Notes: generated by a model not told the origin, from the sequence alone. A stretch of DNA of 64,000 nucleotides from an uncultured Heliobacteriaceae bacterium (GCA_964631865.1 CAZWAK010000007.1:1934-65933), one strand, 5' to 3'. Counted from the first letter of the stretch, positions 22,077 to 64,000 are shown. Numbers and translations are program-made.

Positions 22077-22442
22077 TGGTGGAGGTGGTCGGAATCGAAC
22101 CGACGTCTAGCAGCCATTCACGAAAGAATCTACATACTTAGCCGCTTCGATTATGTTTTCACTCCCGCGCGGTAGTGCGAAGCGGCGAAGAACCGCGCGC
22201 GAGCTATGCCAGAGAAGTCTCGCTCTCCAACTCTGACCTGCGTCAGAAAGCCAGCCGATACAAGTGACGCTCGGAGCCACGCCTATCGGCGAAACGTGGG
22301 CGAACGGGCTGTGAACTAGAGTTAACTAGGCAGCCATTGCGAGTTCTTGATTCGCAATTATGTTTTGCTTGCAGAGTACGGGTTACAAGCATCCCGGTAT
22401 GCATCCGTCGCTGCAGGTCTCCTATCGAAACCAATGCACCCC
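22077..22442 (-). ncRNA. ssrA: tmRNA (SsrA)
   Basis: The minus strand reads 5' GGGGGTGCATTGGTTTCGATAGG... and ends ...GTCGGTTCGATTCCGACCACCTCCACCA, giving a tRNA-like acceptor, T-arm and CCA. An internal ORF ...GCG AAT CAA GAA CTC GCA ATG GCT GCC TAG TTAA suggests a tag ending ANQELAMAA. Confidence 0.75.
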
Positions 22443-22541
22443 CACATTCAAAGAGCGTTTCTATTGTCAGGGAAACGCGGACGGTTTAGAGTCTACGGTT
22501 CGTAAAGATGTGTGTCAAGCACCTGATTTTTCGAGGATTTC

Positions 22542-26518: not shown

Positions 26519-28060
26519 ATGATTTTGATGAAACGTTTCGCATTCGTTTTTGCACTGACCTGCCTGTTGTTTTCGCTGCCGCTGGCGGCGCAATCCGTAG
26601 ACAAAATTCTCAAACAAGCTACCAAAGCGTTGGGCGATGAAAAAGCCTTGCGCAACCTGCGTTCGTGGCAGGTGCAGGGAACCGTCACGCGCCGTCGCGA
26701 TGGCGAAAGCGGCAAATACGAAGCCGCCGCACTCGCCCCTAATTTGTATTGGGGGCAATTCGATTTGCGCGGCTTAGAAACGAGCGTCGGCTACAGTGGC
26801 AAATCCGGCTGGTTCCGCGATGCGCGCAACGGCTTGCGCACAATGACCGGCGACGTGAGCCGCGATTTTCAGGCCGAAGCCGCGTTGCGCAACACGCGCT
26901 GGCTCGACGCGAAAAAGAACAAAGCCAAACTCGTCGCCGCGCCCGGCACGATCAATGGCAAAGCGGTGAACACCGTGACGATGACGACGGCGAAGAATGT
27001 CCGCCTCAAACTGCATTTCGACGCGGCTTCGGGCTTGCTCGTGCGCGAAGAAATTCCGGCGGGCGCACTGACGCGCATCTTTGACTACAGCGACTACAAG
27101 CCGGTCAACGGCCTTCAGTTTGCGCACACGATCACGACCACTGTCGGGCCGGACATCTACGACATCAAGCTTGACCGCATCGTGCCGAACGCGCCGCTCG
27201 AACGCGCTCGCTTTGACTTCCCCGTTGTGTCCAACGAGCTGCTGCCGAACATTGACGCTTTGTTGCAAGAGGTGAAAGCGAACGAAGACAAAGTGGACGA
27301 AATCCTCGAAAAATACACCTACACCGAAAAGCAAACCGACCGCGAATCCGATGCGTCAGGCCAACTGCGCGAAAAAAAATCCGAGACCTTTGAACTCACC
27401 TTTTACAAAGGCAATCGCATCAAACGACTGATTGAAAAGAACGGCAAACCGCTGGCAGCGAACGAACTCGAAAGTGAAAACAAACGCATTGAAAAGCGCG
27501 TGCGCGAGATTGAGAAGAAAGAAGCCGAGAAAGAAAAGAAAGCCAGCAAAGAACGCGAACTCGCGCAAGAGACCGCCGGAACGCCCGATGACGAAAACGG
27601 ACAACGCATTTCCATCGCCGATGTGTTGCGCGCCTCGAAGCTCACGAACCCGCGCCGCGAACGCTTCCGCAACCGTGATGTAATTGTCTTCGATTTCGAG
27701 CCACTGCCCGGCTACAAACCACAAAAACGCGTCGAGAAATTCTTCGGCAAAACGGCGGGCGCGATTTGGGTAGATGCAAACGACAAGCAAGTCGCCCGCG
27801 TCGAAGCCCGGCTGGTCGAAGCCTACAAAGTCGCGGGCGGGATGCTCGCGTCGCTGAAAGAAGGCGCGACGTTTGTGCTCGAACAAGACCGCGTCAACAA
27901 CGAAATCTGGCTACCAACGCGCGCCGACATCAACCTGTCCATAAAGGTGCTGATGGTCAAAGGCATCAATGCGAATTCGGTGATCGAGTACGGCAACTAC
28001 AAACGCTTCCAGGTGGATGCCGAAAAAGAAAAGCTGAAAGACCCGACCAAACCGCAATGA
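26519..28060 (+). CDS. Secreted hypothetical protein with a KE-rich coiled-coil linker between two LolA-like regions
   Basis: Signal peptide and a KRIEKRVREIEKKEAEKEKKASKERE coiled coil. The domain guess is weak. Confidence 0.5.
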   Translation: MILMKRFAFVFALTCLLFSLPLAAQSVDKILKQATKALGDEKALRNLRSWQVQGTVTRRRDGESGKYEAAALAPNLYWGQFDLRGLETSVGYSGKSGWFRDARNGLRTMTGDVSRDFQAEAALRNTRWLDAKKNKAKLVAAPGTINGKAVNTVTMTTAKNVRLKLHFDAASGLLVREEIPAGALTRIFDYSDYKPVNGLQFAHTITTTVGPDIYDIKLDRIVPNAPLERARFDFPVVSNELLPNIDALLQEVKANEDKVDEILEKYTYTEKQTDRESDASGQLREKKSETFELTFYKGNRIKRLIEKNGKPLAANELESENKRIEKRVREIEKKEAEKEKKASKERELAQETAGTPDDENGQRISIADVLRASKLTNPRRERFRNRDVIVFDFEPLPGYKPQKRVEKFFGKTAGAIWVDANDKQVARVEARLVEAYKVAGGMLASLKEGATFVLEQDRVNNEIWLPTRADINLSIKVLMVKGINANSVIEYGNYKRFQVDAEKEKLKDPTKPQ

Positions 28061-38808: not shown

Positions 38809-39130
38809 GATGATTTGAAGATCAACTATACCTTATTCAATTTCGCCTGTCCGCCCGTTCCCAGCGTTTTGCAACGCACGAGGCTACAGCGGAAAGTTTC
38901 GCACGGTGTGCGACCGTTGTGCGCGAAAATCCGCGAATTTGTGGGGCAAGGCTCGGTTTTTCGCGCGGCATACGTTTTGCTCTCTTTGCCAAGGGGGGAA
39001 CCTGAAAAGAGCCAGTAGGGCTAGAAATCGGGGAGTTAGTGCGGTGGGTGCAGCCGCTGCACTAGAGGTTCCCCCCGTTCGATCAAGAAAACTTGGCTAT
39101 CTTGGGGCTGGATTTTTCCTTTTTCAATGC

Positions 39131-40028
39131 GAGGGATGAAATGACAGAATCAATGAAAATTTTGATGGCGTACGATGGCTCTGATTGCGCGCAGGCCGCG
39201 TTGGATGATTTACGCTCGGCGGGCTTGCCCACCAAAGCGAATGTCAAAGTGGTGGCGATTTTGGAAACGTGGTTGCCGCCGCCGTCGGGCTGGGCACTGA
39301 TGGAAGGCACGAGCAGAGCCAGTGAAGAATTGGATCGGTTGGCGCTGGCACAAGGTGCGGCGGTGTCCTTGCGCTCGATGTTTCCAGGCTGGGAGCTGAC
39401 GGCGCAGGAAGAAATCGGTTCTCCGGCCAGCGTCTTGCTGAAGATCGCAGATGATTGGAAGCCGGATTTGCTGGTCGTCGGTTCGCACAGTCGTTCCGCC
39501 GCCGGGCGCTTTTTTCTCGGCAGCGTTTCGCAAAAACTGGTTCACGAAGCGCATTGCTCAGTGCGTGTGGCGCGTGGGCGCGTGCAAGAGCCGGACACGC
39601 CGCTGCGCCTCCTCATCGGGGTAGACGGTTCCGCCGGTTCGCAAGCGGCAGTGAATGTCGTCGCACAGCGTAATTGGCCGACGAACACCGAAGTAAAGCT
39701 GGTGAACGCCACGTGGGCCGCGCCGCATTTGTTCGCTGAACCAGCCGCCTCAGCCGTGACGAAATGGTTAGCTGAAGAACACGCGCGCATCGAAACGAGC
39801 CTGCAAGAAGCACAGGAAAAACTACAAGCCGCAGGTTTGCAGGTGACGCGGCTGACCCGACAAGAAGACCCGAAAACATTGCTCTGCGAAGAGGCGGAAC
39901 GCTGGGGAGCAGATTGTATTTTTGTGGGAGCCAAAGGCGTAGGCCGCTGGGAACGGCTGTTGATTGGCAGTGTGTCTTCCGCGGTGGCGGCGCGTGCGCA
40001 TTGCTCGGTCGAGATTGTGCGTCCGTAA
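39131..40028 (+). CDS. Universal stress protein (tandem UspA domains)
   Basis: Two UspA-like halves, each with ...LLVVGSHSRS.../...FVGAKGVGR... ATP-binding-like loops. RBS gaggga lies upstream of the ATG at 39131. Confidence 0.8.
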
Positions 40029-42721: not shown

Positions 42722-42768
42722 GAGGCGCAGGCAAAGTTAGGGGGAAATTGTCTGCGCCTTTTTTTTTG
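42722..42768 (+). terminator. Rho-independent terminator (plus strand)
   Basis: ggcgcag gcaaagttagggggaaattgt ctgcgcc followed by T9. Confidence 0.6.
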
Positions 42769-53594: not shown

Positions 53595-55190
53595 TCAATT
53601 ACACTCGATCAACGAAGTTTCCGCCAGAATGGCTTCGGGTTTGGCGTCCGCTTGTTGCAGCAGGCTGTCGAGCGTCTGACTCAATTCCTGTTGGAACGAA
53701 CCGCAAATGCTGTCGAGGTCTACCAGCAGGTCTTCGTGATCCAGTTTGCGATACAGCGTCATCGCGCCGATGTCGTGGTTTTGATGACGCAGCGGCACGC
53801 GCAACGACCACTTAGCCTCTACCGTTGTCAGTTCGTCCACGTCTCCACCCGAACGTACTTTGCCCCATCGAACATTGGTCGCGTCGGTAGGCATCGGTTT
53901 CCATCCGTTCATCTCTGCCCCGGCAGCGAACGTTGGTTGGTGAGACGTACTGGCGAGTGTCTTGAGTTCCAGCGTGATGCTGTCAAAATCATTCATCTCG
54001 CAAATTTGACTGAGCAACGCGAAAATCTTTTCGGCATCTGCCGTCTGCTTCATCGCGGCGCACAGTTGCCGGACATTCACATTGGCGATCATTCGGCGGC
54101 GGCGGCGCGTGACGCCTTGACGGATTTTACTCCCGATTACTTCAAATTCAGGGTAACGAAGCCGTTGCACCCCCACCACGATCAACACGCCCAACGTGCT
54201 AAAAATCAACGCGGCGAGCGAGCGACGCGGATTCAGTAGCAAAATGCCGAACAGACAAAATACGCCGCAAACCCCGTACAGCAAAATCGTCGTTTGTCGC
54301 ACCGACAAACCGTGATCCAGGAGCCGATGATGAATGTGCCCGCGATCACTTTGCATCAGCGGTTTGCCGCCCACGAACCGCCGAATCACGGAGAGAAAAA
54401 TTTCGACGATGGGCAAGCCGAACGACACCATCGGAATGGCAATCGCAATTGTCGTCGTTCCTTTTTGCGCGCCAATCAACGACAGCACGGCCACCATAAA
54501 CCCCAGCATCAGGCTGCCCGAATCGCCCAGGAAAATCGAAGCGGGGTGAAAGTTGAAATAAAGAAACCCGACGACGGCTCCGAGCAAAATGATCGCCAGC
54601 AAACCGATCTCGAAATTCCCTACGGCCACAACCGTGAACAAAATCGAAAGCAGCGCAAACGCGGAAATACCGGCGGCCAAGCCGTCCACGCCATCCACCA
54701 GATTGAACGCGTTCGTGATGCCGAGAACCCAAATTAAGGTCAGCACAAAGCCCAGCCCCTCCGGCAGGGCAAAGTTTTCGCCCAGAAACGGCAGCGAAAC
54801 CAACTCAATGCCGAATCCCCAATACTGCAATAAAACGGCAGCCCCGCTCTGCACGGCAATTTTGACCCAGGCACTGCAACCCTTCAGGTCATCATACACG
54901 CCCAGCAAAAAAACTACGGCGGTACACAAGACAATAGAAAGATACCACTGCGGATGCGCATTGAAGCGTTGCCCGATTTCATTTTGCAGAAACGGCACGC
55001 AGCAAAGCGTGAGCAGGAAGCTCGCAAAAATCGCCACGCCGCCCAGGCGCGGCGTAGGTTTCTGGTGAACGCGGCGCTCGTTGTCGGGAATATCTATTGC
55101 ACCCAATGCCATCGCCAACCGCGCGATCAGCGGCGTAAAGACCAACGTCAAAATCAGTGCAATGAGAAATAATACGATGTAGGAGCGCAT
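53595..55190 (-). CDS. Undecaprenyl-phosphate N-acetylhexosamine-1-phosphate transferase (WecA/MraY family) with a roughly 200-aa C-terminal extension
   Basis: Polytopic. ...VYDDLKG..., ...NAFNLVDGVDGLA..., ...HIHHRL... motifs of the MraY/WecA family. Confidence 0.8.
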   Translation of the reverse strand: MRSYIVLFLIALILTLVFTPLIARLAMALGAIDIPDNERRVHQKPTPRLGGVAIFASFLLTLCCVPFLQNEIGQRFNAHPQWYLSIVLCTAVVFLLGVYDDLKGCSAWVKIAVQSGAAVLLQYWGFGIELVSLPFLGENFALPEGLGFVLTLIWVLGITNAFNLVDGVDGLAAGISAFALLSILFTVVAVGNFEIGLLAIILLGAVVGFLYFNFHPASIFLGDSGSLMLGFMVAVLSLIGAQKGTTTIAIAIPMVSFGLPIVEIFLSVIRRFVGGKPLMQSDRGHIHHRLLDHGLSVRQTTILLYGVCGVFCLFGILLLNPRRSLAALIFSTLGVLIVVGVQRLRYPEFEVIGSKIRQGVTRRRRRMIANVNVRQLCAAMKQTADAEKIFALLSQICEMNDFDSITLELKTLASTSHQPTFAAGAEMNGWKPMPTDATNVRWGKVRSGGDVDELTTVEAKWSLRVPLRHQNHDIGAMTLYRKLDHEDLLVDLDSICGSFQQELSQTLDSLLQQADAKPEAILAETSLIECN

Positions 55191-55201
55191 AACAAATTAT
55201 T

Positions 55202-56395
55202 TCAATCCAGTAAACGTTCGCCAGCCATCACAGCTTTATAAACTTCCAATGTTTGGCGAATAACCAATTCCTGCGTAAATTTCTCCAACACCAAAGCGCG
55301 ACCATTGGCTCCCATTTCCCGCCGCAAAGCCGGGGCGAGAAGTAATTTTTGCAAAGCATCAGCCAGTGCAACCGGGTCTTTGGGCGGAACCAGCAGCCCG
55401 TTCCATCCATCCCGCACAATTTCACGACAACCGGTGACATCGGTCGTCACAATCGGTCTGCCGGACGCCGCCGCTTCAATCAAAGACAGCGGTAAGCCTT
55501 CGCGGTACGAAGGCAAACAAACAATATGCGACTGCGCCAGCAACTCCGGGATGTCGCTGCGATGCCCAACCCATTCGACCAATCCTTCTTTTTCCCAGCC
55601 TCGCACCTCCGCTTCCGTAATTGCGGTGGGATTTCCGGGATCGAGCATGCCAGCCAGAAGCACGCGCAGTTGTTGCCCGCGCTGCTTGAGAAGGCGGCTC
55701 GCCTCGACCAATTCGACCACCCCTTTGTCACGCAGCATGCGAGCCGTGAGCAAAATGACGGGCGTGCCGACTGGCTCCGGTTTTGGAGTAAAGAGCGTTG
55801 TGTCTACTCCCGCCCCGGCAATCAATGCGGTTCTGCTTTCAGGCAGGATTTTCCGCTGCACAAAAAAAGACCGATCATCCTCGTTTTGAAAAATGGTGCG
55901 GGCGTTCCGATTTGCCAGACAAAGGCGATAGGCAAAGGTCAATGCGCGCCGCAGCACGCGCGCCTGCCACTGATTGGACGTGAAAAGATAGCCGAGTCCC
56001 GTCACCGCGTTCACAGTTGGGACGCGCGTCAGACGCGCCGCGATGGAGCCGTACAGAATCACGCGCAGCGTGACCTGATGCACAAGCTGCGGCTGCCAGC
56101 GCCGATGCAACGCAACAATGTTGGCTATCGTTCTCCATTCCGTCAGCGGCGTCGCGCTCAGTCGTTGCAACCGCAGCGGTTCAAAATCGAAGCCTTCCGC
56201 CTGAATGCGTTCGACATATTCGCCCGGCAACGTGGCCACCGTGACCGCGTATCCAGCCGCGCGCGCGGCGCGTGCCAGCCGCAGACGATGTGTCCAAAAA
56301 TACCAATCGTTGGGAATCAAATACAGAATGCGCGGTTGCGCCGTGGGCTGCTGCGCCGAAGCCGAGTCAGTAGCCAACTTCGCAGGCCCAATCAT
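55202..56395 (-). CDS. Glycosyltransferase family 4
   Basis: C-terminal GT4 motifs (...[26 protein letters not shown]...). Start set at MIGPAK for a 4-nt overlap with asnB; it could extend to 56455. Confidence 0.75.
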
Positions 56396-58356
56396 CTCGC
56401 TTCTTCGCTCAACCAAGCCTGGAACATCAAAATGGGCCATAAGTAATAATGCCAATTGCGCGCGCCGGACAAATGCTCAAGCCATCGCTCCCGCACTAAA
56501 TCTGCTTTGAAAAAGCCTTCCGTGCGCAAGCGGTTTTCATCAATCAACGCCTCCGCCCATTCGCGCAACGGCCCGCGCAACCAAACATCAATCGGCACGC
56601 CGAACCCTGTTTTCGGGCGTTCGATCAATTCACGCGGAACAAACTTATAAAGCAGTTGCCGCAAAATCCATTTGCCTTTGCCGTCCCGAATTTTCAGGTG
56701 CAGCGGCAAACGCCAGGCGAATTCAATCACGCGATGATCGAGAAACGGAACTCGTGTTTCCAGACTCACGCCCATCGCCGCGCGATCTACTTTCACCAGA
56801 ATGTCATCGGGCAAATATGTCATGAAGTCCAGAAACATCATGCGTTGCTCAAAATTTGTCCCGTCGCCCCAAGCTTGACTAATAGCCATCGCAGTCGGGT
56901 CTTCGTGCGTGTGCAACACCAAATCGTCCGTTTTCTTCCAGGTCGAAATCAAACTCTGATAAATAGCCTCTGGCTGCTCGACCACCAGAATCTCCGCCAG
57001 TTTATGCAGTTTGTCGCCGGGCACGTTGTAGCGCAGGCTGCCGGGAATAATCATTTTCAGCCCCTGAAACGTGTGATTCCAGGTGGTCGGCGAGACGGTT
57101 GTAATCCCAGCAGCAGCGGCCTTTCTAAGTCCGAGTGGAATCCAACCCAGCTTGTTCCAGATGTTGGTCGCCCAAAAATATCGGTTGTACCCACCAAACA
57201 ATTCGTCTCCGGCATCGCCCGACAAACTGACCGTCACCTTCCGCCGCGCCAGTTGAGAGACGAGGAAGGTGGGAACTTGTGACGAATCGGCGAAGGGTTC
57301 ATCGTACAGTGCAGGCAGCTTCGGGATCACCGCCAACGTTTCGGCGGGCGTGACATAAAATTCTGTGTGATCGGTGCCCAAATGACGCGCCACCGCCTTC
57401 GCAAATTCTGCTTCGTTGTATTCGGTCTCGTGAAAGCCAATCGTAAAGGTCTTGACCGCTGACGCCGACTCGGCCTGCATTAAAGCCACAATCAACGAAG
57501 AGTCTATGCCGCCCGACAAAAACGCGCCGAGCGGCACATCGGCGATCATCTGCCCGCGAATCGTTTCGCGTAAGATCGTCTCCAATTCGGTCAACGCTTC
57601 TTCTGCCGTGCCGGAAAACATCTGAGCGCGTGCTTGATGGGCAATCTCCACCGGGTCCCAATACGGCTTCGGCACTAGGCTTTCTTTGCGCCCACAAGCC
57701 GCCAACGGAATCGTCAGAATCGTGCCCGGCAACAGCTTGTAAATACCGCGATAGATCGAATACGGCGCGGGAATATAGGTATAGCGCATCAAGAGCGCCA
57801 GCGCTTTTCGCTCGACTTCTCCGCGCCAATCTGGGTGCGCACACAACGCTTTCAATTCCGAGCCAAAGAGCAACGCCTCGCCGACCCAGCCATAATACAG
57901 CGGCTTCTCTCCAGCGCGATCTCGCACCAGATGTAGCACTTGTTCTCGCCGATCCCACACCGCGAACGCGAACATCCCGACGAAGCGTTTGACCGCCGCT
58001 TCTATGCCCCATTGAGTAAAAGCGGCCAGCATAACTTCCGTGTCCGAATGGCCTCGAAAACCGTGTCCTAAAGACTCTAACTTCGCTCTTAACAGTGGGA
58101 AGTTATAAATCTCTCCGTTGAAGACAAGCACATATCTGCCGTCCGCAGAAAGCATCGGTTGATGGCCTTCCGGGGACAAATCCACGATGGACAGACGGCG
58201 ATGCCCCAATCCAATTCCCGTTTCGGTCTCCACCCAGGCACCACTGTCATCCGGGCCGCGATGAAGCACCGCACAGGCCATCTGCGCAGCGATGTTCGTG
58301 AGTTCTGCTTCGCTTCGGTGATTCGCGGAATCAAGAAAACCCGTTATGCCACACAT
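56392..58356 (-). CDS. asnB: Asparagine synthase (glutamine-hydrolysing)
   Basis: N-terminal MCGITGF... GATase Cys2, and the PP-loop SGGIDSS. Confidence 0.85.
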
Positions 58357-58364
58357 AGCAATCG

Positions 58365-59456
58365 TTACCTGATAGGATGGGATAAGACTTCTCGATAAAG
58401 GTTTTCGTAGCGCGCGACGACGGAACTTAAACTAAAATGTTCTTCAATCCTACGCCGCGCCGCCGCACCCAACGCAACTCGTTCAGGTTTACTCATCATC
58501 AATATCGTTCGCCATCCAGCAGCCAACGCCTGCGCGTCGCGCGGCGGTACTACAAGACCAGCGTCGCCGATTATCAGGGCCGAATCGCCCACGTCTGTAG
58601 CCACACACGGAACGCCACAAGCCATGGCTTCTCCCAGCACATTGGGGAAGGCTTCGCTTTCCGAAGAACTAGTGGCAAGGTCAAGAGCGAGCAGAATCGG
58701 CGTGACATCTTCACGCCTTCCAAGCAAAAAGCAAGCGTGTTCAATGCCTGTCTGTTGCAGGAGCGCCATCAATTCCTTGTTCTCCCAATGAATTCCGTTG
58801 CCGCAAAGAAGAAAGCGAGCAGCAGGCATGTCTTTCAGCAGTAAAGCTGCCGCCTGAGCAAAATTAGGAAGGCCTTTTCTGCGATCATATCGAGTAATTA
58901 GCCCGATCAATGGCGTTGTACTTTCCAAACCCAATTCCTGGCGAAGCGAAGTAGAATTTTCCTGACTAGCCCGATAATGTGTTAGGTCAAAGCCATTAGG
59001 GATAACGACTATTTTGTCGGAATCATAACCCATTTCAAGGTGCGACTTCCGGGCGGTTTCCGAACAACTAACAATGCGAGTAGGAAGCAATGACGATAAG
59101 CGGGCACAGACTTTAGTTAGTATAAACGTCTTTTTATCTTTGATATAAGGAGCAACGTCAGCTCTGATATTCCATACGACGGTGGCATTTGTACTGAGTT
59201 TTCCTACAATGCCCGCCATCAAATCTGCGTGGTACATCCAGGTTTGAATAATATCTACGGGGCGACCTGCCAGGTAACGCCAGAGCCTCCCTAATTTCGC
59301 AGGTGAAGGAATTTGCATCCCTTGCCTCAGCCCCAACGCCCTAACCGGGATGCCGAGCTGCTGAATTTTTTCTCCTAATTGCCCCTGATCTGTTAACGAG
59401 ATAACTTCCAAATCAAATACTTCTTTATTCATGCCGACGAGAAGTCTATAAAGCAT
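58365..59456 (-). CDS. Glycosyltransferase family 4 whose N-terminal beta-strand/Gly-loop is encoded upstream of the first ATG
   Basis: GT4 motifs (...[27 protein letters not shown]...). The in-frame upstream codons read ...KIHIVHVISGLLAGGAES before MLYRLL, with no ATG/GTG/TTG. Confidence 0.65.
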
Positions 59457-59566
59457 TGATTCAGCCCCTCCGGCAAGAAGCCCGCTAATAACGTGAACAA
59501 TATGAATTTTATTTTGCAGAAGCCAAAACCATCCGTAACCTGCGATAGGCGAGCTATCTCAGATAG

Positions 59567-60424
59567 TTATTTTTTGTACCCCACGGCTGTCCAGAATTGA
59601 TCTGTATGGAAAGTAATATCACGTAACCCCGCCCGCAGCATCATTTGCCTCACTTGTAATTGCGTGAAGCGTTGTTCGAGGCGCGTCCCAAACCGGTCAA
59701 GCGCATCATTTCTCATCACGTACAACGTACGGTGGCGATACCAGGCTAAGGGAAAGTGTTCTACATTTACCCCCAGTGCTTCTAACCCTAAAGCAAAACG
59801 AGCCAGTGGCCAGTAAATTAACCTCGCTAATATGTCACTTATGAGAGATCTTAGAGGAAGAGGTAGCCGAGAGATAAGGCGGCGGGCTAAGTCACTTCCT
59901 TTCCAAATCAACCTAAACCAAAACGGACGGTTATCAAACGCATAATACAAATAGAGTAAGAAAGGAGCACCAGGTTTGAGTTTGGCAATACATTGCCGAA
60001 GCCCAGCCTCCGTATCAGGAACATGGTGCAACACTCCTAATGAATATCCAAAATCAGCAGAGTTATCAAGTAAAGGAATAGCATCTACACTGGCTTGATA
60101 AAACTGACAATTTGACACTTCCTTAAGATTTAGGCGCGCAACATCAAGTGCTTCCGCACTAGGGTCAATCAGATGTAAGAAGCCAACTCGTGGGGTAACG
60201 AATTTCGCCCATCTTCCACTGCCACAACCTAAATCAAACCCCACCGCATTCGGTGGTAACTTCTCCCAGGGGAAAATATTAAAATAACTATCAAACATCA
60301 CAGACAACTCTGCGGCTGAGAGCTTCGATTGATCAAATCGTTGCCACTCGTCCCCAAACCCCTTTACAACTTCTTCGTGAATATTTGCGGCTGTCATTGC
60401 CTGGGGAAATAAGGAATTCCGCAT
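59567..60424 (-). CDS. Class I SAM-dependent methyltransferase
   Basis: ...VGFDLGCGSGRWA... motif I. Confidence 0.7.
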   Translation of the reverse strand: MRNSLFPQAMTAANIHEEVVKGFGDEWQRFDQSKLSAAELSVMFDSYFNIFPWEKLPPNAVGFDLGCGSGRWAKFVTPRVGFLHLIDPSAEALDVARLNLKEVSNCQFYQASVDAIPLLDNSADFGYSLGVLHHVPDTEAGLRQCIAKLKPGAPFLLYLYYAFDNRPFWFRLIWKGSDLARRLISRLPLPLRSLISDILARLIYWPLARFALGLEALGVNVEHFPLAWYRHRTLYVMRNDALDRFGTRLEQRFTQLQVRQMMLRAGLRDITFHTDQFWTAVGYKK

Positions 60425-60425
60425 C

Positions 60426-61802
60426 TCAATTTACTCCCCTAGCAAAGCCCCGCCTATTCGCCACCGGCACAAATCTGATTCGTTGTCTTTTGCGCTTCAG
60501 TCTTACAAATGGCCGGATAATTATTCGTAGAAATCCAGGGCCACCAGTAAGAACTAAAATGCCGTATGCAACTATATGATGTCGAATTGCCGTGCCCCAA
60601 TTGGCAGTTCCCATCGCCCACAAAAACTCAAGGCTAAAATAGCAGATTATTAGAAAGCCCCATTGACTCCGGCGCTCGCCCGAAGCGTGATACCAGGTGG
60701 CCAAGGCGTGAAAGATCAATAGTAATCGCAGATAACCTTCAAACGCTCCATAAATATCAACTGTACTGGAAATCTGCCAAGGGAATGGAGCCAGCATATA
60801 CATAGTAAATACCCAAGCGGCAGAAGGAATAAAAGCAGTAAGTGAAGACGTATCGAGCGTTCCCCCATAGCTGGCTCGGTCATAGCTTGTTGTTGTTCGA
60901 TCCCGATAGACTCCAGCATACTCTGCTCCTTCGCCAGACATTAAGGCTCTGGCCGCTCCCCCTGTGTCGCTGGCAATCAAAAACCAAGTCAATAAGATTC
61001 CTCCGAGCAACCCTACCCCCGCAAGTTTGGCTATCAAGCTTCGCCCTTCCCACCTCTTCAAATTGAAACGCAGCCCCCAAAAGAAACCTAAACAGATCAA
61101 AAATAGGGCGTATATGAATAACCCATTATGAAAGACCCCTAACGCGAACCCTGACCCACTCAGCATTATCATTTTCACTAATGTAGGCTTTTTGCGCAGC
61201 GACAAACCGAAATATGCGACCATCAAAAAGAATAGCATCTGTAGTGACTCGCGCATGGTGATAGAAGTGAAGATGATTGCTGAAGGCAGTAAGCCATAAA
61301 TAAGAACCAGCCCGATTTGCCATCTTGCAATACCAAGCAATCTTGCCATTTTTATAATCACCAAGCAGGACATAACATAGGCCAAAATTGATAATTCCTG
61401 GCCGAGCAGTTTAGAATCACCAAATAAGCGATAGAAAAACGAAAGAAACTGGATATATGCACTACTCCCTGCCTCCATACCGCCAAACTCAGCAAACCAC
61501 ATAGGCTGAATTGAATGTGACATGGTGACAGCATTCTCGTGGAAAGTGACAGCATCCATATCAGCGCCGATTAAGATGAAGTAATAAGCGTTGACGAACG
61601 AGGTAAGGTGTCTAGCTGATAAAGCGAGAAAAGTAACGGCTAACAACCTCCAATCGCTATGGATATCCTCATCTGCAAACAGAGTGAAATAGGTTCCGTA
61701 AAGCACGACTAAGGCTGCACGGTCGGCGGATAGAAAACTAAAGAAAACTATAATCATAAATGCAAGGGATAGAATACTAACTTCTGATTTACCTAAGATC
61801 AT
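60426..61802 (-). CDS. Polytopic membrane protein, putative O-antigen/EPS repeat-unit polymerase (Wzy-like)
   Basis: More than 10 predicted TM segments, in the middle of a GT/methyltransferase cluster, low GC. The assignment is by context only. Confidence 0.45.
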   Translation of the reverse strand: MILGKSEVSILSLAFMIIVFFSFLSADRAALVVLYGTYFTLFADEDIHSDWRLLAVTFLALSARHLTSFVNAYYFILIGADMDAVTFHENAVTMSHSIQPMWFAEFGGMEAGSSAYIQFLSFFYRLFGDSKLLGQELSILAYVMSCLVIIKMARLLGIARWQIGLVLIYGLLPSAIIFTSITMRESLQMLFFLMVAYFGLSLRKKPTLVKMIMLSGSGFALGVFHNGLFIYALFLICLGFFWGLRFNLKRWEGRSLIAKLAGVGLLGGILLTWFLIASDTGGAARALMSGEGAEYAGVYRDRTTTSYDRASYGGTLDTSSLTAFIPSAAWVFTMYMLAPFPWQISSTVDIYGAFEGYLRLLLIFHALATWYHASGERRSQWGFLIICYFSLEFLWAMGTANWGTAIRHHIVAYGILVLTGGPGFLRIIIRPFVRLKRKRQRIRFVPVANRRGFARGVN

Positions 61803-61919
61803 ATTTCTTATTCAATCTATCAACCAACTTTGTAGTTATGTGATTACACAAAGTAAATGTTGATGGCTAAATACTGCATTAAACTCCGGACTGCAAGACA
61901 ACTCCATTTGCTATACTGA

Positions 61920-63062
61920 TTAAAGTAGCTGGCTCAGGGCCTGTTCAGTTTTTATAAAGAGTGTCTCTATACTAAAATTTTCAGCAATCTGGTGCCGCAC
62001 AATATTTTTTTCAGGTAAGGTTCCTCTTGCAACACTTAATATCGCCTCGGCCAGTAATACGGGATTACGTGCTGGAACCACGATACCAACGGAACCGACA
62101 ATATTTGACGAATCTCCTACATCGGTCACAATACAGGAAACACCACAGGCCATCGCTTCCCCAATGCTATTTGAAAAACCTTCTGTAATCGAAGAGGAAA
62201 CCGCAATATCCAGCGAATTATAGACTGCGGCCATATCGTCCCGAGCCTCACTCCAAATTAAGCGCGAACCTAGCATTTGTGCAGCAGCTAAATTTTTCAT
62301 TTCTGATACATATTCCGGACTTCCATTACCAACACACACAAACCGCAATTTGGCGTTTTGCTGCGCCGTCGAGAGTGCTGCCTGTAAGAATGTAGGATGA
62401 TCTTTCATCGGGTCAATTCGAGCGACTAATCCAATCAATATTTCGTCTTCCTGAATGCCCCATTCAAGTCTGAGTTTTTTTCTCAAGGCGTCGTTTGGTG
62501 AAAACTTCCGGATATCTATGCCATTATATATGGTAATTATTTTGCTCCTCGGAAATTGACGGGTAATAAGATGACGATAACCAGCCTGCGAATTTACGAT
62601 GATCAGATCCGCCCAACGAGCCAAATATTGCTCTAATTGACTAATGAATCGCTCTAACCAGTCATAGCGGCTCAAATCCATGTCAGAGGCGCGAATTCCC
62701 CAAACTATTTTCATTTTTGGGGAAAAAGCTTTAATGAGTACAGCCAAAATATTGGCAACTGCCAAATAGCTATGTAAAATTGCAGGCTTCTCTTGGCGAA
62801 TTAATAAAATCAGCCTGCAAATGAATAACAACACATCCCAGCGCCCTCTTTTCTGTAGGCAATGCACTGGAATACAATTACTAACTAGTTCTGAATCAAA
62901 TTCCCCTTTATAAAAAGTAGCAACAGTTACAGGCCACCTTTTTAAGGTGAGGCCTTTTGTTAACAAGACTAACTGTCTTTCTGCCCCCCCCCGCTCTAAA
63001 GCGCGCGAGAGAAAAAGAATTTTCTTCTGAGCTATTGACATGCTATTACAATTTCTCGTCAC
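61920..63062 (-). CDS. Glycosyltransferase family 4 carrying a G9 homopolymeric tract in codons about 19-22
   Basis: ...[23 protein letters not shown]... GT4 C-terminus. The likely start is MSIAQKK at 63041. Confidence 0.8.
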   Translation of the reverse strand: MTRNCNSMSIAQKKILFLSRALERGGAERQLVLLTKGLTLKRWPVTVATFYKGEFDSELVSNCIPVHCLQKRGRWDVLLFICRLILLIRQEKPAILHSYLAVANILAVLIKAFSPKMKIVWGIRASDMDLSRYDWLERFISQLEQYLARWADLIIVNSQAGYRHLITRQFPRSKIITIYNGIDIRKFSPNDALRKKLRLEWGIQEDEILIGLVARIDPMKDHPTFLQAALSTAQQNAKLRFVCVGNGSPEYVSEMKNLAAAQMLGSRLIWSEARDDMAAVYNSLDIAVSSSITEGFSNSIGEAMACGVSCIVTDVGDSSNIVGSVGIVVPARNPVLLAEAILSVARGTLPEKNIVRHQIAENFSIETLFIKTEQALSQLL

Positions 63063-63078
63063 TCTTTCCTAATCAACC

Positions 63079-63882
63079 TTATTTAACTCCGACACACATG
63101 ACATACGTTGCCAGTTGCTGATTAGACTTTATATTGCCGTTTATTTTCTCAAGCAACCTTACTAGGTACGAGCCACGCCTTAGTAAGGCTATAATGGGAA
63201 ATGTGATAATAAAAGCTAAACTGTTAGTCTTTACCCCACTCAAGTTACACATGCCAAAGTTTAGGGGTATTAAATAGTCGCATGTCAATACATTAATACC
63301 TGAGTCATAGTGCGCACGCTTTAGGTCTTCAGTTGTAAGCGGCACGTGGATATCGTAAACTCGCCGATTGGCAGTTTTTTGCGCCCAACCAATTATACCA
63401 GTCATATTCGGGATTATGGTTATAACTATACCTCCTTTTTTCATATAACGCATAACAGCTTGTATATATCGAGATGTATCTTCAAAATGCTCTGCCACCC
63501 CCATTGATAGAACAACATCGAATACCTCAATTAGATTATCCGGCGGGTGAAACAAATCTGCACAAATAATACTACCTTGTACGCCCGCCCGATATAAGAT
63601 TTGGCGCTCTTGCTCGCAACCTATTTCTGAGTAATCGATTCCACTAACTTCAAACCCATACTCTTTGGCAAAATAGGGAAGCCAGGACGAGCAAGCGCAT
63701 CCGATCTCTAACAAAGTTGCCCCTTTCATTTGCCTTCCTCTGAATATGTCCTGAAAACATTCATGTAGTTTTATATTTACATAGTTTTTACTACTTAAAT
63801 TATAAGGATCAACTGGTTTAATATCGGCAACAGTATTCCAATTGGCATCCCAGTAATCCTTTCCCGCTTTATCTATGTTCAT
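63079..63882 (-). CDS. Class I SAM-dependent methyltransferase
   Basis: ...LLEIGCACSSW... motif I. AT-rich gene. Confidence 0.7.
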   Translation of the reverse strand: MNIDKAGKDYWDANWNTVADIKPVDPYNLSSKNYVNIKLHECFQDIFRGRQMKGATLLEIGCACSSWLPYFAKEYGFEVSGIDYSEIGCEQERQILYRAGVQGSIICADLFHPPDNLIEVFDVVLSMGVAEHFEDTSRYIQAVMRYMKKGGIVITIIPNMTGIIGWAQKTANRRVYDIHVPLTTEDLKRAHYDSGINVLTCDYLIPLNFGMCNLSGVKTNSLAFIITFPIIALLRRGSYLVRLLEKINGNIKSNQQLATYVMCVGVK

Positions 63883-64000
63883 TATTTTCTTTTCTCAAGC
63901 TTTGAATACTAAAACAGTCCATCTTAATTTTCTTGGCGACAAAATAGTAACGCGATGTTTATTTAGGTGAGGTTCGGACTATATACAGTACCTATTAAGC

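Follow-up and report, generated by a model that had tools for sequence, protein, structure and literature searches.

The window (the whole 64-kb stretch of DNA that was analysed) ends inside a cluster of co-directional genes, in the order rmlC, rmlB, rmlA, MurJ-like flippase, methyltransferase, the glycosyltransferase that concerns us here, a 458-amino-acid membrane protein, methyltransferase, GT4, AsnB-like protein, GT4 and WecA-like protein, of which the first four lie past the window's end on an overlapping Logan contig, L002. The central gene, at 61920–63041 on the minus strand, encodes a GT4-family glycosyltransferase of 373 amino acids and carries a run of nine G residues close to its 5′ end. 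An alternative GTG start at 63062 would give 380 amino acids, while the N-termini of orthologues (‘MKKILFLS’, ‘MAGSAKKILFLS’) favour the ATG at 63041. The product matches the Pfam domains Glyco_transf_4 (PF13439; residues 18–178, 73.6 bits, cut-off 28.5, E = 2.6e-20) and Glycos_transf_1 (PF00534; 78.4 bits against a gathering score of 26.4, E = 6e-22), as well as PF13692 (86.6 bits, cut-off 27), and has the EX7E motif in its C-terminal domain (EGFSNSIGE, residues 287–295). It shares these two Pfam domains and EX7E with the solved GT4 structures of BshA (2jjm/3mbo), HepE/Alr3699 (4xso) and MshA (3c4q), and the ‘PGGAE’ of HepE aligns with its own N-terminal GGAE. It has no equivalog-level match, the best NCBIfam hit, TIGR03088, reaching 142 bits where 409 are required, and its similarity to these PDB relatives reaches E-values of only 1e-11 to 1e-12. 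The gene product is thus a generic GT4 enzyme with predicted glycosyl-transfer activity.

Directly upstream, in the same operon, lies a SAM-dependent methyltransferase gene (63079–63882, minus strand; Pfam Methyltransf_11/23/25), the most AT-rich of these genes with a GC content of 39.6%. Directly downstream is the gene for the 458-amino-acid multi-pass membrane protein (60426–61802, minus strand), which has at least six hydrophobic segments, gave no Pfam or NCBIfam match, and has a counterpart kept in the same position in a syntenic cluster (L003, described below); its position suggests a Wzy-like polymerase. The remaining genes, all on the minus strand, encode a second methyltransferase (59567–60424; Pfam), a second GT4 enzyme (58365–59456; Pfam), an asparagine-synthase-like amidotransferase (56392–58356; Pfam Asn_synthase, E = 7e-120), from which point the GC content is normal, a third GT4 enzyme (55202–56455; NCBIfam matches, and Pfam domains annotated on the Logan contigs) and, at the distal end of the cluster, a WecA/MraY-family initiating phosphoglycosyl transferase (53595–55190). 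The last of these matches TIGR02380 (WecA) with E = 1e-37, under the equivalog cut-off, and its orthologue in L003 carries PF00953. The flippase (L002 2948–4216) likewise matches TIGR01695 under the cut-off, with E = 6e-61, and has Pfam MurJ/MatE domains. With both an initiating transferase and a flippase among its predicted products, this is by gene content a predicted Wzx/Wzy-type surface-polysaccharide cluster.

The second GT4 gene shows a peculiarity at its own start. A conserved GGAE motif, ‘KIHIVHVISGLLAGGAES’, lies in frame upstream of its ATG at 59456 (window 59457–59558, minus strand), and there is no ATG, GTG or TTG between this start and an in-frame TGA at 59559–59561, the only candidates being CTG (59517–59519), ATT and ATC. 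The L003 orthologue is arranged likewise (‘ILHIISGLIAGGAET-MLY’), which suggests either a non-canonical start codon or a systematic miscall of the start.

From about 58.4 kb onward the GC content falls to 40–49%, and over the last 6 kb to 41–49%, compared with about 55% elsewhere, and GC3 to 0.37–0.46, compared with 0.61–0.73. An earlier sequence-only reading of this DNA described this part of the cluster as AT-rich and apparently acquired; the first description stands, while the second goes a step further than composition does, since the syntenic clusters in L003 and L004 are also low in GC (45.6–46.5%) and low GC therefore characterises such clusters in general. It is plausible that this low-GC island was acquired recently. 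The host is probably an uncultured member of the Blastocatellia (Acidobacteriota) and not a host-adapted pathogen, because two proteins of the window share 90%-identity clusters with others labelled ‘Blastocatellia bacterium’ and because the window encodes CarboxypepD_reg/OMP-barrel receptors.

The G9 run in the reading frame

The run is C9 on the plus strand at 62984–62992, where the sequence reads ...TCTGCCCCCCCCCGCTC..., i.e. G9 on the coding (minus) strand, and occupies nucleotides 50–58 of the GT4 gene, within the first 5% of the open reading frame. It is spelled CGG GGG GGG GCA and encodes R17 G18 G19 A20 as counted from the ATG at 63041. The sequence-only reading had reported this run and placed it in a GT4 gene, and both points are borne out, the former by direct reading and two independent assemblies, the latter by two Pfam domains far above their gathering scores; its assignment of the run to codons 19–22 is to be corrected to codons 17–20, or 24–27 if the GTG at 63062 is used. 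It had also proposed the run as a candidate for phase variation. In its strongest form this would make G9 an evolved contingency locus, kept by selection as a stochastic and reversible ON/OFF switch, which would turn one sugar-addition step or the whole downstream operon on and off and so vary the surface polysaccharide as a defence against phages or grazers. The evidence that bears on this account comes from several directions and is taken up as it arises.

Within the 64-kb window, G9 is the only G/C homopolymer of seven or more, followed in length by a G6 and a C6 in intergenic DNA, at 38993 and 39071; under a first-order Markov model 0.03–0.06 runs of nine or more would be predicted for the window. 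That the run is the sole long G/C run of the window favours a contingency locus. A tandem-repeat scan found no further simple sequence repeats in the island, and Rfam and tRNA scans gave no match at the G9 locus. The longest A/T homopolymers of the window are T9 at 42759–42767 and A8 at 27372–27379.

The two G/C runs of six both belong to a potential RNA structure at 38993–39077 on the plus strand, upstream of a tandem-Usp gene (39093–40028). Here two hairpins lie inside a perfect 11-bp stem (GGGGGGAACCT...AGGTTCCCCCC), with a minimum free energy of −48 kcal/mol (z = −4.0 against shuffled sequences); it had no Rfam match at gathering score and could be a leader or a regulatory RNA structure. 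The window also contains a tmRNA gene at 22077–22443 on the minus strand (Rfam RF00023, 142 bits), with the tag peptide ANQELAMAA (ARAGORN).

Homopolymers are error-prone on some platforms and the source is a metagenome-assembled contig, and one might suspect that the true run has another length or is interrupted. Two Logan contigs from different SRA runs are, however, 100% identical to the window and carry G9 in both cases, namely L001 (SRR12808459), which spans window positions 61448–63330 (1.9 kb), and L002 (SRR12816583), which spans 58375–64000 (5.6 kb) and runs 4.3 kb past the window's end. Because these independent assemblies agree with the window base for base, the run is not an assembly artefact; in addition, G9 alone keeps the frame through a full-length protein which aligns end to end with 373-amino-acid homologues, GGAE included. 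An error of sequencing or assembly is accordingly very improbable. The three copies at hand (the window and the two Logan assemblies) all have G9 in frame, a small sample of very low power; the uniform length counts against a contingency locus to that extent.

In silico, loss of one G (G8, a −1 slip) leads to a TAG stop at 62969–62971 and a peptide of 23 amino acids, and gain of one G (G10, a +1 slip) to a TAA stop at 62908–62910 and a peptide of 44 amino acids, both stops being on the minus strand with coordinates derived manually from the sequence. The earlier expectation that a slip in either direction would truncate the protein early therefore stands, with these two lengths in place of the roughly 25 residues it had given for both. 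Such early truncation by either slip, close to the 5′ end of a gene for a surface-polysaccharide glycosyltransferase, is again what a contingency locus would show.

An NCBI-sourced record of 304 amino acids (P0143) was considered as a possible sign of a frameshifted tract and rejected. It begins at an internal in-frame GTG, codon 70 (62832–62834, minus strand), with GAGGG 9 nucleotides upstream, and a product from this codon would be N-truncated and lack the GGAE loop. NCBI-sourced records shorten the adjoining, tract-free methyltransferase in the same way, to 216 amino acids from 267 with a start at the internal Met52, while identical DNA was called as 373 and as 380 amino acids on the two Logan contigs, and none of the six N-terminal peptides predicted for G7, G8, G10 or G11 occurs in the protein records. 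P0143 is for these reasons a start-site miscall, and both truncated records look like gene-caller start errors in atypically AT-rich DNA. Thus neither this apparent truncation nor any predicted variant product in the protein records speaks for a switching locus.

A further account takes the run for a recoding signal, in which a −1 ribosomal frameshift heptamer or transcriptional slippage would yield a defined fraction of short product. The zero-frame sequence (CG)G GGG GGG does fit the pattern X_XXY_YYZ as G_GGG_GGG. All-G heptamers and G/C runs are, however, poor slippery sites in comparison with A/U-rich ones, translation in the −1 frame terminates at 44 residues, neither of the shifted frames (23 or 44 residues) yields a product that can be recognised, and the run is missing from the orthologues. 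Both forms of recoding are very unlikely, and we rate them as the least credible of the explanations considered here.

Motif, codon usage and orthologues

The residues encoded by the run belong to the family's invariant N-terminal motif. All ten homologues that were inspected keep the sequence G-G-A-E unchanged; it marks the start of the Glyco_transf_4 profile (Pfam profile position 2), and the 16-residue peptide F-L-S-R-A-L-E-R-G-G-A-E-R-Q-L-V is identical in both nearest orthologues. In the context GAR CGN GGN GGN GCN GAR, it takes only G at three synonymous third positions to produce G9. In the island GGG is the commonest glycine codon (29–30%, compared with 13% in core genes) and CGG accounts for about 17% of arginine codons, and from this usage the probability of CGG GGG GGG is about 0.5–1.5%. 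Synonymous codon shuffling gave a run of at least nine in 1.55% of trials for the glycosyltransferase gene (nominal P = 0.0155) and in 1.4% for the six island genes (nominal P = 0.014). A value of about 1.5% is out of the ordinary, yet the island's preference for GGG among glycine codons keeps it from being compelling. Although such nominal and uncorrected values, drawn from 64 kb of the genome, can be cited for a contingency locus, they also fit the rough extrapolation that chance alone would place about 0.5 such run in a genome with a few hundred kilobases of island-like DNA, most probably at the N-terminal Gly-Gly of a GT4 gene. The ease with which this invariant motif can give rise to a run is a point against selection for the run itself.

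The rest of the window behaves differently. Its 48 core ORFs (window 1–58360) contain no G/C run of six or more, where synonymous codon shuffling predicts 11.4, and the native genes thus strongly avoid G/C homopolymers, a contrast that can be read in favour of a contingency locus. In the island, G runs of 3–5 occur at the expected frequency, with no general avoidance, while runs of length 6–7 are missing (expected, 1.7) and a single G8 and a single G9 compare with expectations of 0.17 and 0.02. For the genome G9 is thus a real outlier, but for the island only about a 1–2% tail event.

The G8 just mentioned lies in the MurJ-like flippase gene (L002:4104–4111), about 185 bp past window position 64000 and 1.2 kb upstream of G9, on the same strand and in the same low-GC island. 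It is spelled TGG GGG GGG AGT and encodes W386-G-G-S of a 422-amino-acid protein; its orthologues have W-G-V/I-N at this site, so that the run was created by a lineage-specific change from Val/Ile to Gly. Two runs of at least eight in the island occurred together in 0.36% of codon shuffles (nominal P = 0.0036), which is the best statistical hint of non-randomness and adds to the case for selection. On the other side, codon 386 of 422, near the 3′ end, is badly placed for an OFF switch, and this weighs against a contingency locus.

The nearest orthologues of the glycosyltransferase, in L003 (GCA_009612815.1) and L004 (a Logan contig), are syntenic and 64–66% identical. They spell the same motif CGC GGA GGA GCA and CGC GGT GGA GCA respectively, with no run and no indel, and the missing tract counts against a contingency locus. 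The sequence-only reading had allowed that a tract interrupted in close relatives, with no indels, would tell against switching. This is formally the pattern seen in the two genomes, but as proteins common to the syntenic clusters are 47–76% identical, placing the relatives at roughly genus level or beyond, it makes a weak test. The absence of the tract carries little weight because the relatives are only 64–66% identical, and because the gonococcal glycosyltransferase gene pgtA varies in this respect within one species, tract-bearing and tract-free alleles occurring side by side (PMC2193922).

Nothing closer to the gene came to light. Among 5.8 billion protein clusters there was no homologue of the glycosyltransferase between 66% and 100% identity, and a search of genome and metagenome contigs for a conspecific locus returned only distant GT4 genes of 27–46% identity. 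The WecA-like protein (53595–55190) has a variant of at least 90% identity, P0158, on another Logan contig of 2.5 kb, while no near relatives of the island genes turned up, a hint that related strains have the cluster's flanks in common but not its low-GC centre, which is probably serotype-specific.

Slippage, switching and comparable systems

Slipped-strand mispairing at G/C runs of seven or more is an established basis of phase variation (PMC2193922, PMC5953494), a threshold that G9 exceeds, and no simple sequence repeats in coding regions are more mutable, or more strongly avoided, than mononucleotide repeats of G/C (PMC3315296). Comparable runs of G9–G14 switch in Neisseria pgtA (PMC2193922) and in the Akkermansia exopolysaccharide gene Amuc_1413 (PMC13055324).

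The explanation we favour, and hold to be probable if only by a little, is that G9 is an incidental, slippage-prone by-product of the conserved motif and local codon usage which would nonetheless be able to give ON/OFF heterogeneity. An invariant Arg-Gly-Gly-Ala, spelled CGG-GGG-GGG-GCA in a GGG-rich island, would be enough to create the run. If the run behaves as its counterparts do in other bacteria, slipped-strand mispairing at replication would add or remove a single G with a frequency that exceeds the base rate by orders of magnitude, and the resulting G8 or G10 alleles, with their peptides of 23 or 44 amino acids, would abolish the transferase. Early termination might also lower the expression of the wzy-like gene and those after it by polarity, and a slip in the opposite direction would restore the gene. 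By the same analogy, G9 may be inferred to yield glycosyltransferase-null variants, and revertants, at a much higher frequency than ordinary mutation. Three points stand against a mere by-product, namely that core genes purge such runs, that the second run, G8, lies nearby, and that a 5′ position is typical of selected switches. An evolved contingency locus, with the same points in its favour, strikes us as a good deal less probable and on balance doubtful.

The arrangement of a homopolymer within a glycosyltransferase gene is classic in Neisseria lgt and pgtA and in LOS/LPS genes of Campylobacter and Helicobacter. A close parallel is pgtA of N. gonorrhoeae (pglA of N. meningitidis), which encodes the pilin galactosyltransferase; there too the poly-G tract within the ORF specifies several glycines in a row, and altering its length by one G turns the enzyme OFF (PMC2193922). 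The pgtA tract lies mid-gene (Gly246–249), has 9–20 G and is length-polymorphic among isolates, with switching demonstrated by FLAG fusions (PMC2193922), whereas the present G9 lies at codons 17–20, has one length in the three copies at hand and is known from sequence alone. The hosts differ as well, a host-restricted pathogen in the one case and an environmental acidobacterium in the other. The sequence-only reading had listed Neisseria and Haemophilus among its precedents; pgtA bears out the former (PMC2193922), while Haemophilus makes a poor example for homopolymers, as it depends chiefly on tetranucleotide repeats (PMC2651432).

Precedents beyond the classic pathogens also lend some support to a contingency locus. 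In the non-pathogen Akkermansia muciniphila, Amuc_1413 is a putative exopolysaccharide biosynthesis/export gene with a 5′-proximal G9 (nucleotide 164), which is truncated by G10 (PMC13055324). During experimental evolution G9 changed to G10 in four of nine sequenced mutants, variants with G8 and G10 are found in 4 of 100 genomes, mucin binding has been measured as a phenotype, and the organism's mutation rate is normal at about 1e-10 per nucleotide per generation (PMC13055324). The Amuc_1413 product is not a GT4 enzyme, and its slip was observed directly (PMC13055324). In Vibrio cholerae O1, an aquatic bacterium, homonucleotide tracts in O-antigen genes likewise give rise to intra-strain heterogeneity of a phage receptor, the variants there having been selected with lytic phage and characterised (PMC3441752). 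The present run, if it switches, would have the same ecological rationale. None of the papers covered by a literature search dealt with Acidobacteria, phase variation and homopolymers together.

G9 is, then, a genuine run, predicted to be prone to slippage, and a legitimate candidate for phase variation of a well-known kind, with both switching and selection putative. The label of candidate given by the sequence-only reading is a fair one and is in keeping with the anatomy of the run, while an origin in motif and codon usage, the tract-free orthologues and the single length of the three copies stand against going further. The codons for the invariant N-terminal Gly-Gly loop of GT4 enzymes are by nature rich in G, and location by itself is weak evidence, because synonymous drift can make G runs just where contingency tracts are expected.

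That G9, perhaps together with the flippase G8, forms a selected slipped-strand switch of surface polysaccharide in an uncultured member of the Blastocatellia is a tentative proposal and an unlikely one. Were it true, the Acidobacteriota would gain their first described homopolymer contingency locus, and there would be evidence that free-living environmental bacteria use switches of the Neisseria and Campylobacter style, presumably against phage or grazing. If switching is real, the run would also provide a simple read-level marker in metagenomes for phage- or predation-driven heterogeneity of the cell surface.
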